DNA of 64,000 bases from Chrysomallon squamiferum (Eukaryota; Animalia; Mollusca): contig CM022677.1 of assembly GCA_012295275.1 (NCBI GenBank), positions 20,584,001 to 20,648,000 of the forward strand, read 5' to 3'. Positions 12,601 through 24,600 of this stretch are shown here, in pieces. The notes under the pieces are model-generated. The model was not told the DNA's origin. It saw nothing but the letters and a program-made list of their open reading frames with translations, and searched no databases. Each line of letters begins with the position of its first letter. Within the stretch, counting starts at the first letter, position 1. A program made the translations under genes and the position numbers.

Positions 12601-15600
12601 TTGTTCACAATGCTTTTGTTCTGATTATTATTTGATTATTTGTTTCATTTATGGTGTTGTTATTGATGTGTATTACTTTACAATTTCACTATATTTGAAT
12701 AAACCATGATACCATGAATATTATTTTGTAGTTACAAGTAGAATGAGTGTGTGTGTGTGTATGCGTGTGTGTTTGTGTGTTTATATAGATATAGATATTT
12801 ATGTGTATTTACATACATATATACATAAAACGTATCCCCAGACAGACAGATGTACATGTTTATGAAACAGACATATTAATTATTTGTTTATCAGTGGATG
12901 GTGGATGGACTTCATGGGACGTTGGTGAAAGATATACGTGCAGTGTCACGTGTGGTAGTGGTCGTAGAACACTGACACATTTTCGAGAGTGCACTAACCC
13001 GTCTCCAAGCTACCATGGAAAACTATGTATTGGTTTCACCGAAAAAATTACTGACGAAACGTGTAATACTGGAATCAGCTGTGACGGTATATTTCTTAAA
13101 ATTAAAAAACTTTTGCTGTATGAGGGTAAATACTTGTATGTCGTGACCTGTAGAGTGTTATTTTTCTTTCATTGTATCAGCTTTAATTAATTAGTTTACG
13201 TACGTATATATTTATTTACCTTTTGATTTGTTTGATTGTTTCTTTCTTTCTTTTTCTTTATTTGTTCATTAATTTAAAAATTCATTTTAATTATTTTATA
13301 CCATCTGTATTGATTAATTATTTTATGAACTAATTAATTTGTTTGTTTGATTCTTTCTTTCTTCCTTCTTTCTTTTTTCTTTCTTTATCCATTCATTTTC
13401 TTCTATTATTAGCAATGTGTTAATTAAGAAGATTTTAATTATTTTTTCGTTCATTTAATTACTAATTATTCAATCGTTACTAATTAAACAGATATTCCAT
13501 GGAACCCTGAAGACCCAAATGAAGGTGAGGAAAAAAATTAAAACCAACGTTAATGAAACCTAGGTATCTGAGTAAGATTTTATCGTCTATAGCTTTTCAC
13601 CTCAGGACAAAACGTATACTATAAGGTGAAGTCAATTAATTCGAAATATTTTTGAAAAGAAATTAGAAAAATTTCAAGTTTGTTTACCCTTTCTTTCAAT
13701 GTGTCATCCATACATGCTGTCAGTACAATAATAAAAATAGTTTGATATGGTTTTCCTTATCTCTTTATCTGTTTTACACTTTAACATATACACTCGAACA
13801 CATCTACCGTAAATAACCTTAATTTAAATTTAATATCTACCTGTCTATCTTTTAATATATACATATATTTTATTGATGTTTTCAGTATATTCAGAAACGA
13901 ATCAAGGTAAGGGCAAGGACGACATCAATTTTTCTTAGGTTATTGAACTGAGTTCCGTAATTTATTATTTTTTAATTTTTTAATCACGTTTTTCATTTTA
14001 CAATGAAGGCGTTTAGCTGAAAGGAACACGGGAACAACTAATTTTGGTTTATCATTAGAAATGATTATGTGCAGTGCTGTTTTTCTTTTGCATTTATTTG
14101 ATTGTTTATTTATTTATTTATTTATTTATTTATTTATTTTTATATCTGTTTGTTTCTTTATCTATTTATTTATTCACTCATGCCATTTTGAATTGTGCAT
14201 TCGTTCACTCTTTCTTCAGTTTAAACTATTTTTATCAATAAGTTAGGAAAACGTCACTTCTGTAATTTCTTTTGATTAACCTATCAGTCATGAATTGGTC
14301 TATTTCAGTAAGATAATGAAAATAGTTTAATCTGGTTAATCAAATAAGTCTGCCTCTTTTACTCTCTGTGTATCACGCAGTGGCTCAAATAGAGCAAAAC
14401 ATATCTATTTTACACTCGTAATATATACATACATAATACATACATATATATATATATATATATATATATATATATATATATATATAGAGAGAGAGAGAGA
14501 GAGAGAGAGAGAGAGAGAGAGAGAGAGAGAGAGAGAGAGACTCTTAGATAGTAAAATACACACATAAATATTGATTATAGATGCACAAACAATCCAACGT
14601 TTGATTCAATAACAACATCTGTATTGCTTTAGATATATTCTTTCTTTCTTTCTTTATATGTGTATTTGTTTTTTTTAGAGGCAGCAGCAATATATACGGA
14701 CATAAATGAAGGTAATATTTTACAGTTAGAAAACAAAACACCACAATTCATTAAGTTTTATCTTTTATCTGTGTGCGGTTTTACATTCTAACGGTTGTAC
14801 GAAAATCAACAACAACAACAAGAACAACAAAAAAACAACAAAAAAATCCCAAATATACGAAGACAAAAAAATGAGTAAATAACATTCAATTCACTTGTTG
14901 TTGTTTTTTTTTTTGTTTTTTATTTGTTTAGTAATTAATTAATTAATTAATTTATTTATATTTTATTCGTTTATTCTTTGTTTCTTTGCTTCCTGCTTTC
15001 TTTTTTTCATTATTTGCTTTTGCAGTGGTTTATAGGCTAATTATTTAATTAAAATTCCTGATACAGGTTCAGGCGGGAAAGCTATACACTATGACAAAGG
15101 TAAATACAGCCGTACAGGTAACTTTTGTAAGACTAGGTGATTAAGTGACGGGTTTAGTTTTGGCTTTTTTGGCGACACAGAGAATATTTATTGCGAAGTA
15201 ATTTTTCTTTGGTTATTTATTTTTGCACTATTTCTCAAAATAAATTAGAATTATGTCATTTCTTTTGACTAACCTTTGATTTATTCAGTCATGCATTCAT
15301 CAATTTCAGTATGATAACAAGAAATAGCTTAATGTGGTTCATTTAATCTCTTTGTCTCTTTTGTCTATCACTCACACAGATACATAAAAATACATTTATC
15401 ATTTACAGTCCTTATATATATATATATATATATATATATATATATATATATATATATTTATCATATACAGTCCTTATATATATATATATAGTTAGATAGA
15501 TAGATAGATAGATAGGTAGGTAGGTAGATAGATAGATAGATAGATGTAGTTATTGAGGTATAAAGAATCCAGCTTTGGATATAACATCAGTATCTATATT

Positions 15601-21600: not shown

Positions 21601-24600
21601 TGCCGTGTAAAGTTTGTTTTTCTTTTGCATTTATTTTTTGTTTATTTAATTATTTATTTATTTATTTATTTATACATTCATTCATTCATTCATTTGTTCT
21701 TTCTTCGATTGCTTCTTTGTTTCTTTGCTTCCAACTTTCTATCTTTCTTTTTTCCTTCCTTTACTCGCTGATATATTATTAAAATTACTTATATAGGTCC
21801 AGGTGAGAACGCTATAGACAATGAGAAAGGTAAGTAACACTGTACAGGCAAGGTTTAAAGACTTGGTTATTAAATGATGTGTTGTTGTTTTTTTCACAAA
21901 ACAGTAGACTTTTAAATCTTGTGAAGTAATTCTGGGTAACGTTAATAGATTTAAATTATTTTTAAAAATAAATTAGAAAAATGTCAAGTAAATCAATCCT
22001 TTTAATTAAGCTTTCCTTTATTTAGTCATCCATTCATCAATTTCTATAAGATAATAAAACCATTTTAGTGAAGTTCGATAATCTCTTTTCCTCTTTCACA
22101 TTCTATCTAACACACATTGATACACATAGATGCAAACACATTTCTGTTTTACAGTTTTATATAGACATAGATATATGTACAATCCTTTATATGTAGATAG
22201 ATAGATAAATAGGTAGACAGATTGTATGGATAGATAGATAAATAGGTAGATAGATTATATGGATAGATATATAAACATATTGGTATAGTAACATAGCTAT
22301 ACTGCTACAGATATATTTATTTATTTATTTATTTAGAGTCAACAGCACTGAATATAGACACAAATCAAGGTAATAATCCGGGGAAAGTCAACATTCTTAC
22401 AGCAAAAAAAAAAAAAAAAAAAAAAAAAAAAAATAAAAATAAATATATAAAAATTAAAAATTATAACTAAAAAAAAAAAAAAAAAAAAATAAAAAAACAC
22501 CTTTCTATCTTAAGATTTAACATGATGTGATCTGGTTTTACGTTGTGTGGGTCAAACATAAACGAATATACCAATAAATAACACTTATTATGTCAGTATA
22601 TTTGTTTATTAATTTTTATTTAATTTTAGTTTTTCATTTTACAATGAAGGCGTTTAGCTGAAAGGAACACAGGAACAACTAATTTTGGTTTATCATTAGA
22701 AATAATTATGTGCAGTGCCGTGTAAAGTTTGTTTTTCTTTTGCATTTATTTTTTGTTTATTTAATTATTTATTTATTTATTTATTTATACATTCATTCAT
22801 TCATTCATTTGTTCTTTCTTCGATTGCTTCTTTGTTTCTTTGCTTCCAACTTTCTATCTTTCTTTTTTCCTTCCTTTACTCGCTGATATATTATTAAAAT
22901 TACTTATATAGGTCCAGGTGAGAACGCTATAGACAATGAGAAAGGTAAGTAACACTGTACAGGCAAGGTTTAAAGACTTGGTTATTACATGACGTGTTTG
23001 TTTTTTTGACAAAACAGAAGACTTTTAAATCTTGTGAAGTAATTCTAGGTTACGTTAATAGATTTAAATTATTTTTAAAAATAAATTAGAAAAATGTCTG
23101 TTAAATCAATCCTTTTAATTAACCTTTCATTTATTTGGTCATCCATTCATCAATTTCTATAAGATAATAGAACCATTTTAGTGAAGTTCGATAATCTCTT
23201 TTCCTCTTTCATATTCTATCTAACACACATTGATACACATAGATGCAAACACATTTCTGTTTTACAGTTTTATATAGACATAGATATATGTACAATCCTT
23301 TATATGTAGATCGATAGATAAATAGGTAGACAGATTGTATGGATAGATAGATAAATAGGTAGATAGATTATATAGATAGATATATAAACATATTGGTATA
23401 GTAACATAGCTATACTGCTACAGATATATTTATTTATTTAGAGTCAACAGCACAGAATATAGACACAAATCAAGGTAATAATCCGGGGAAAGACAACATT
23501 CTTACAGCAAAAAAAAAAAAAAAAAAAAAAAAAAAAAAAAAAAAAATAAAAATTAAAAATTATAACTAAAAAAGAAAAAAAAAAAAACACAATAAAAAAA
23601 CAACTTTCTATCTTAAGATTTAACATTATGTGATCTGGTTTTATGTTGTGTGGGTCAAACATAAACGAATATACCAATAAATAACACTTATTATGTCAGT
23701 ATATTTGTTTATTAATTTTTATTTAATTTTAGTTTTTCATTTTACAATGAAGGCGTTTAGCTGAAAGGAACACAGGAACAACTAATTTTGGTGTATCATT
23801 AGAAATAATTATGTGCAGTGGCGTGCAAAGTTTGTTTTTCTTTTGCATTTATTTTTTGTTTATTTATTTATTTATTTATACATTCATTCATTCATTCATT
23901 TGTTCTTTCTTCGATTGCTTTTTTGTTTCTTTGCTTCCAACTTTCTATCTTTCTTTTTTCTTCCATTACTCGCTGATATTTTATTAAAATTACTTATATA
24001 GGTCCAGATGAGAACGCTATAGACAATGAGAAAGGTAAGTAACACTGTACAGGCAAGGTTTAAAGACTTGGTTATTAAATGATGTGTTGTTGTTTTTTCA
24101 CAAAACAGTAGACTTTTAAATTTTGTAAAGTAATTCTAGGTTACGTTAATAGATTTAAATTATTTTTAAAAATAAATTAGAAAAATGTCAAGTAAATCAA
24201 TCCTTTTAATTAACCTTTCCTTTATTTGGTCATCCATTCATCAATTTCTATAAGATAATAAAACCATTTTAGTCTTGTTCGATAATCTCTTTTCCTCTTT
24301 TACATTCTATCTAACACACATTGATACACATAGATGCAAACACATTTCTGTTTTACAGTTTTATATAGACATAGATATATGTACAATCCTTTATATGTAG
24401 ATATATAGATAAATAGGTAGATAGATTATATGGATAGATATATAAACATATAGTTGTAGTAACATACATATACTGCTGCAGATATATTTATTTATTTATT
24501 TATTTATTAATTTAGAGCTAACGGCAGAATATACGGATATAAATCAAGGTAAGAGCATGGATAATTTTGATATGCATATCGAAAGGAAAAAATAAATAAG

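Follow-up and report, generated by a model that had tools for sequence, protein, structure and literature searches.

The 64,000-nucleotide window analyzed here, from Chrysomallon squamiferum (GenBank assembly GCA_012295275.1, contig CM022677.1, positions 20,584,001 to 20,648,000 of the forward strand; positions below count from its first letter), is AT-rich, microsatellite-rich animal DNA that holds a cluster of related genes, here termed copies. One of them, copy 1, contains a tandem array of eight units of 1,074-1,148 bp (15638-24515, + strand), each carrying two microexons. We consider it quite probable that this array is a frame-neutral tandem two-microexon module, spliced in RNA, which likely multiplied by unequal crossing-over and which would extend the predicted disordered stalk of a receptor with a leucine-rich repeat (LRR) block and six thrombospondin type 1 (TSP1) domains. 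The array is real, expressed and mechanistically explicable, and it lies in a fast-changing receptor cluster that is apparently undescribed. The features of the array and of its host gene, with protein lengths in amino acids (aa) and the transmembrane exon abbreviated as TM, are as follows.

15638..24515, + strand: tandem array; per unit, a 33-nt exon A, an intron containing an A-rich tract, a 33-nt exon B and an intron that closes with an (ATTT)n acceptor
15638-15670, 16739-16771, 17887-17919, 19001-19033, 20114-20146, 21220-21252, 22337-22369, 23442-23474, + strand: the eight A microexons
16200-16232, 17347-17379, 18462-18494, 19575-19607, 20680-20712, 21797-21829, 22912-22944, 24002-24034, + strand: the eight B microexons
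5260..6688, + strand: copy 1 coding exon 1, predicted signal peptide and LRR block, 476 aa (Pfam LRR_8, E 9e-35; open reading frame, phase-1 donor)
7183-7212, 8133-8177, 8884-8898, 12066-12080, + strand: copy 1 linker microexons, phase 1-1
7717-7908, 8495-8692, 9267-9458, 11407-11598, 12401-12595, 12895-13086, + strand: copy 1 six TSP1-type exons (T1 to T6), phase 1-1
13492..15099, + strand: older stalk microexons S1 (13492-13524), S2 (13886-13906), A0 (14679-14711) and B0 (15067-15099)
24516..26128, + strand: membrane-proximal stalk microexons A9 (24516-24548), C (24949-24981), D (25755-25790) and E (26096-26128)
26378..26860, + strand: predicted TM exon (26378-26456) and cytoplasmic tail exon from 26738, with NPAF motif, ending ...SEL

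Joined by coordinates, the 37 exons of copy 1 yield an open frame of 1,226 aa with the predicted order signal peptide, LRR block, six TSP1-type exons with short linkers, 261-aa stalk (aa 899-1159), TM and 41-aa tail. The array contributes 176 aa to this stalk, at 22 residues per unit, as the preliminary description of this DNA had stated; its 22-aa repeat consensus is likewise correct, as are all its counts, including the sixteen frame-keeping microexons bordered by AG and GT, every one of which could be placed by coordinates. All 16 array exons are 33 nt long and in phase 1-1, with AG directly 5' and GT directly 3', and the introns measure 527-575 nt from A to B and 481-507 nt from B to A. 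Because every exon has this length and phase, the gain, loss or skipping of any of them keeps the frame, and each extra unit would bring its own splice sites. The B donor reads as the consensus AAG/GTAAGT in seven of the eight units. Intact AG and GT borders were rejected as proof of selection, since about 7% of columns vary and eight invariant splice columns would be met by chance about half the time; the array exons are judged real because they are homologous to in-frame exons of paralogs and are joined in RNA. An internal CAG/GTGAG is found six bases into the array B exons (16200-16211 in B1), in all except B8, and could act as a frame-neutral donor or acceptor; the RNA joins seen take the full 33 nt of B and not this internal site. 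The Pfam TSP_1 profile was run on T5 only (E 1.7e-4, above the cut-off), the remaining TSP1 exons being called from their WxxW / CSVTCG pattern. A TIR domain, as found in Toll-like receptors, is not present in the predicted tail of about 41 aa, and such a domain is larger than a tail of this size could hold.

The use of these exons was assessed in 11 listed sequencing runs, available as collapsed assembled contigs, the depth of which represents neither genomic copy number nor units per transcript. The region 5200-13200 is present in nine of these runs. The share of its words found was 0.27 in run X6 and 0.25 in run X7, close to the exonic share of 0.31, and only 0.10 is common to copies 2 and 3, the paralogs further along the window; copy 1 or a near-identical gene is therefore present in both RNA libraries. 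Runs X10 and X11, with a word share of 0.02, were rejected as evidence of anything. Contigs of four runs (X3, X6, X7 and X8) were compared with 23610-24700, the segment containing B8 and A9. Both X6 and X7 are RNA (study P3), X8 (study P2) behaves as RNA, its library type not being on record, and X3 is presumed to be DNA. Contigs reading B-A-B were found in X6 and X8, and hence in two studies; they exit B at 24034, continue with A letters identical to A2-A5/A8 and re-enter B, all through exon-exact joins. The X8 contig of this kind is 96 nt long, i.e. 66+30, the length that would be expected from the collapse of a 66-nt mRNA repeat with 31-letter words. Run X7 adds one A-B contig and a 583-nt contig in which B (24009-24034, 0 differences) is followed by A9 (0 differences) and by exon C, the letters of which are those that distinguish copy 1 from copies 0 and 2. 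B exons are thus covered with exon-exact joins in X6, X7 and X8, and the assembled contigs of these runs document frame-keeping splicing of repeat exons into RNA. The preliminary description had made its proposal depend on the inclusion of array exons in transcripts, and joins B-A, A-B and B-A9-C are indeed seen in RNA contigs. In X3, B is covered within intron sequence, and among the rows listed there are no B-A, A-B or B-A9 joins. Within the same run, the loop or A-B contigs are deeper than those with A9 (X8, 135.8 vs 27.4 and 41.1; X7, 23.1 vs 8.1), a crude figure that fits several units per transcript and gives no count; X3 provided no clean single-copy baseline, and depth was rejected as a measure of how many units a transcript or a genome contains. 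Intronic contigs at depth 3-17 indicate that pre-mRNA or DNA is present in X6 and X8.

Which gene supplied the looped contigs is a question that involves the other copies in the window.

1..2458, + strand: copy 0, 3' end only (A9, C, D, E, TM, tail)
29525..41530, + strand: copy 2, layout as copy 1, with a single B exon (38513-38545), a broken A1 homolog near 38116 and a 67-aa stalk
45369..55710, + strand: copy 3, layout as copy 1, with a 53-aa stalk; linker m1 not found by exon search
58836..63522, - strand: 3' part of a more distant relative, with two TSP1-type exons, 31-aa stalk, TM and NPAF tail

The intron preceding A9 in copy 0 (1-263) shares 95.7% identity with array unit 4 and has retained a 33-bp repeat that is absent from unit 8; copy 0 may carry an array of its own upstream of the window. 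It can be argued from this identity that the copy-1 array is mostly skipped and that the RNA loop derives from copy 0, from another unseen paralog or from a 66-nt back-spliced circle, the more so as a collapsed loop shows both joins and not their order in one molecule, and as joins from B0 directly to B exist. We regard this as improbable, given that in X7 an array-type B is joined to A9 and C of copy-1 type and an array-type A to B, that the B donors conform to the consensus noted above in all units except one, and that a 66-nt circle at the highest depth of the stretch seems unlikely. Several points nonetheless weigh against splicing of the copy-1 array as we describe it. The contigs can neither count units per transcript nor tie the B-A-B loop to copy 1, and copy 0, the upstream part of which lies outside the window, could be the source of that loop. 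Moreover, the segment compared was 23610-24700 only, so that no A exon was checked in its genomic place, the library type of X8 is unrecorded, and the absence of joins from X3 carries little weight, resting as it does only on the rows listed. On the reading preferred here, most copy-1 transcripts would hold several units in series and some would skip them.

Exon skipping, which had also been proposed beforehand, is hinted at by contigs in X6 and X8 that join B0 directly to a B exon and by a 69-nt X8 contig reading B0-B-A9, which keeps the B8-marking letter at 24008 (from depth sums) and has one other difference from B8; these contigs are not assignable to copy 1. If it came from copy 1, the B0-B-A9 contig would represent an in-frame skip of 15 exons (165 aa). 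It could equally be attributed to a short allele or to a paralog, copy 2 having a single B and a broken A1 homolog.

Regarding the origin of the array, exons A0, A1 and A9 are older paralogs that mismatch at 8-9 of 33 positions, and identity between the A0-B0 module and the array units is 68-70%. With these as older homologs of the units, the stalk appears to have been built by repeated duplication of one module. The intron upstream of A2-A8 is of A9 type and ends in an A1-type acceptor, which places the founding exchange, as we infer it, in the (ATTT)n acceptor tracts; the first duplication would have been an unequal exchange between the tracts preceding the older paralogous exons A1 and A9. 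Units differ from each other by a mean pairwise 2.4% over 952 columns, and they are 85-88% identical (12-15% divergent) to the single unit of copy 2, the synonymous divergence (dS) of the LRR exon between copies 1 and 2 being 0.087. The array hence expanded, or was homogenized, after the split of copies 1 and 2. In a four-gamete test on the units, 159 of 300 informative site pairs were incompatible, and conflicts between adjacent sites numbered 6 vs 12.7 in permuted data (p = 0.003; p = 0.009 once adjacent sites are merged). Incompatible pairs together with fewer conflicts between neighboring sites point to exchange among units; low divergence and mosaicism are both what homogenization or shuffling by unequal exchange would leave, in agreement with the unequal crossing-over postulated in the preliminary description, and the array was likely made in this way.

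One stretch of the array calls for separate treatment.

20680..22911, + strand: unit-long near-identical pair, 20680-21796 / 21797-22911, holding A6 and A7

Outside the A-rich tract its two members are free of substitutions, and the other five of the six neighboring pairs differ at 17-26 sites. Units 6 and 7 had been described as near-identical, which does not hold if units are cut at the A exon (16 site differences); the near identity belongs to the pair listed above. It is either the youngest duplication or an assembly duplication, and the unit count is eight or perhaps seven. The very recent expansion suggested earlier is tied to this single pair, which an assembly duplication would produce as well. 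As a rival explanation, an artefact of assembly affecting the array as a whole or by one unit draws on this pair, the members of which differ only within the A-rich tract; it is very improbable, as 17-26 site differences, with variants shared in a mosaic fashion, separate the other units, and as a linear B-A join in RNA requires at least two tandem units. Taken on its own, an excess of one unit in the array is somewhat unlikely, and that the whole array should be false is hardly credible.

Genes built on similar lines are known. In the polymorphic mucins of Schistosoma mansoni (SmPoMuc), units of ~1 kb each carry one 27-bp exon, with up to 20 repeats (PMC2576457), and the analogy drawn in the preliminary description is a true one. 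Common to both are a tiny repeat exon in ~1-kb units, conserved introns (>94% in SmPoMuc), microsatellites inside or between units, and tandem multigene clusters for which unequal crossing-over or conversion has been proposed (PMC2576457). They differ in that SmPoMuc units hold one 27-bp exon and those described here two 33-nt exons, and in that the SmPoMuc repeats occupy the 5' region and are linked with polymorphic glycosylation, whereas ours are poor in Ser/Thr and make up the stalk next to the membrane in what is predicted to be a single-pass LRR-TSP1 receptor. The likeness is one of design, and sequence homology is not claimed; the model presented here, with 37 exons and two kinds of 33-nt repeat exon close to the TM, does not have the 15 exons and single 27-bp repeat exon in the 5' region of the SmPoMuc family. 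For SmPoMuc, trans-splicing has been reported to yield more repeats than are present in the genome (PMC2576457). In a similar vein, the KIV-2 repeat of human LPA consists of 5.5-kb units with exons of 160 and 182 bp, each encoding a 114-aa kringle copy, and ranges from 1 to >40 copies among alleles (PMC4378929; 10.1101/2021.01.19.427332). It resembles the present array in that each tandem unit comprises two exons and as many introns and in that the frame is kept at any unit number, and differs in its 5.5-kb kringle units, as opposed to 1.1-kb units with a predicted disordered peptide of 22 aa. Head-to-tail genomic units, each with exons and introns, are thus found here as in SmPoMuc and LPA KIV-2, and the locus, which displays three features of intron-containing coding repeats, operates in the manner of both without being a member of either.

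Ectodomain length also varies with repeat number in MUC1 and in platelet GPIb-alpha with its stalk repeat, and in both the repeats lie within one exon, so that they cannot be dropped unit by unit through splicing. MUC1 is an exonic variable number tandem repeat (10.1101/2021.01.19.427332), and mega-thrombospondins (PMC6526912) and Hydractinia Alr (PMC9546547) have other architectures. In the fester-family (FF) receptors of Botryllus, fester and uncle fester have their alternative exons between Sushi and TM (PMC12582321). As the genes described here would be, the FF receptors are clustered transmembrane receptors of an invertebrate; they are polymorphic, and the splicing of TM-adjacent exons shifts their head relative to the membrane, as skipping might do here. 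They differ in having Ig and Sushi domains and in that one to three exons are alternative, and the accessible text describes no genomic array of tandem stalk exons (PMC12582321). Within the literature searched, which left supplements and most subscription papers outside, no report was evident of a mollusc LRR-TSP1-TM receptor or of a microexon array in a receptor stalk.

Over its 22 aa the repeat peptide carries a net charge of -4, with three Ser/Thr, a single Pro and no N-glycosylation sequon. A mucin-type repeat rich in Ser, Thr and Pro was not found (S+T+P 4/22), and on the strength of its charge, few Ser/Thr and missing sequon the repeat reads as a charged disordered tether, not as a mucin. 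Variable columns are about as frequent in exons (5/66) as in introns (61/886; p = 0.80), and all five exon sites change a residue; purifying selection on the repeat peptide was rejected on this comparison, which has low power. The product would be a flexible, charged tether, variable in length and weakly constrained in sequence, and repeat number likely sets the length of this predicted floppy stalk. A coil estimate, made with a scaling law, gives an end-to-end distance of ~11 nm for 261 aa vs ~6 nm for the 85 aa left without the array, a gain of ~5 nm, the contour lengths being 99 and 32 nm. Mean reach would hence gain modestly unless the chain is stretched or modified, and stalk length would likely loosen and modestly raise the LRR-TSP1 head and not act as a rigid ruler.

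It is tempting to go further and to postulate that unit number and skipping have been selected to set the distance between head and membrane. Stalk length does vary widely among the four paralogs, the 261, 67, 53 and 31 aa given in the preliminary description for copies 1, 2 and 3 and the minus-strand gene being borne out by exon sums (11+11+11+11+12+11 = 67 aa for copy 2, 11+11+8+12+11 = 53 aa for copy 3 and 14+6+11 = 31 aa for the minus-strand gene). Adaptive tuning of this kind is also in line with the B0-B joins (X6, X8) and the B0-B-A9 contig with its B8 letter, with a strong replacement excess in TSP1 domains 4-6 of the sort expected from a recognition receptor, and with the precedent of the Botryllus FF genes, in which 1-3 extracellular exons are spliced out in genotype-specific patterns (PMC12582321). 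On the other hand, the repeat exons are no better conserved than the introns, the estimated gain is only those ~5 nm, the B0-B-A9 contig departs from B8 at one letter and might derive from a paralog or short allele, and no ligand is known. We therefore advance adaptive reach tuning tentatively, as a possible but on balance doubtful addition to the frame-neutral module described above.

The replacement excess concerns TSP1 exons 4-6, which show 47 base and 40 residue differences between copy 1 (11407-13086) and copy 2 (35371-36961) and not a single purely synonymous codon change. Codon counts give 0.5 synonymous differences (Sd) over 121 sites and 45.5 nonsynonymous ones (Nd) over 446 (Fisher p = 2e-4), a result from one pairwise comparison that omitted T1 and in which exons 4-6 were chosen after five had been seen, T2 and T3 having a nonsynonymous to synonymous ratio (dN/dS) near 1. 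The introns between exons 4-6 differ by 3-6% between the two copies, and dN/dS for the LRR exon is 0.33-0.50. Judged from these sequences, the pattern suggests diversifying selection on a recognition surface in TSP1 4-6, perhaps following a gene-conversion tract.

The closest full-length relatives of the LRR exon, obtained in an unindexed search, are proteins of 429-581 aa (28-41% identity, E down to 7e-76), a length too short for six TSP1 domains and a stalk. Ten of their clusters were looked up, six of which were named, and in the five with a legible organism this was always a gastropod. Gastropod LRR-only proteins from Haliotis (XP_071106136.1), Aplysia (XP_005100877.1), Patella (KAK6170528.1) and Babylonia (XP_076461505.1) match the LRR exon over its full length at 28-34% identity; they differ from copy 1 in their ~510-580 aa, insufficient for six TSP1 plus stalk, and those examined end soon after the LRR block in a hydrophobic tail. 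Among 98 matches of 836-2,385 aa (best identities 22-33%), none had a TSP1 Pfam domain in what was an insensitive search, and no homologs of 262-835 aa were returned at E 1e-35 or better by a search that missed the relatives of E 7e-76 found otherwise. In metagenome contigs, 64 pattern matches came down to one locus with an 18-residue match. On this weak negative evidence, the LRR-6xTSP1-TM layout looks lineage-specific.

Some further observations concern the copies themselves. For the minus-strand gene, no LRR exon was seen within the window. Between 37393 and 38135, copy 2 lacks S2 and B0, its S1 homolog continues into an (AG)n tract where no in-frame donor could be found, and its A1 homolog is shortened and without GT; from these losses, stalks would seem to shrink as well as grow. 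The T3-T4 intron of copy 2 has an insert (34320-35060) with short open reading frame fragments and higher GC, absent from copy 1, which is possibly a transposon remnant. The B exons outside the array (15067-15099, 38513-38545, 53247-53279) start with Gly-Ser-Gly in an acidic context, which resembles a glycosaminoglycan attachment site; the amplified B carries Pro at the position of this Ser. In copies 1, 2 and 3 alike, the linker microexon that follows the LRR block encodes a strongly basic, Arg/Lys-rich stretch (7183-7212, 31369-31398, 47190-47219) and represents a possible convertase site, cleavage at which would release the LRR head. An NPAFD motif is kept in all five tails (26738-26860, 41417, 55616, 58954 on the minus strand, and copy 0), four of which end in a hydrophobic residue with Ser or Thr at -2 (SEL, SEL, SEI, TVF); these features resemble sorting and PDZ-binding motifs.

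The building principle of the array has been published for SmPoMuc and for LPA KIV-2, which limits the surprise it can cause. Its interest lies in the presence of RNA-supported coding sequence inside satellite-like DNA, where annotation pipelines are expected to miss such exons, and in a module that could change both through crossing-over and through splicing. As a rather unlikely extension, the genes may form a lineage-specific mollusc LRR-TSP1 recognition cluster, in which positively selected membrane-proximal TSP1 faces would be combined with a stalk length set genetically and per transcript (by 11-residue skips, up to 165 residues), tuning the contact distance to microbes or other cells. 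The array uncouples stalk length from head sequence within one gene family, and this family offers a direct test of selection on ectodomain length in an invertebrate receptor, one that is worthwhile because the replacement excess in TSP1 4-6 suggests that the family recognizes something variable.

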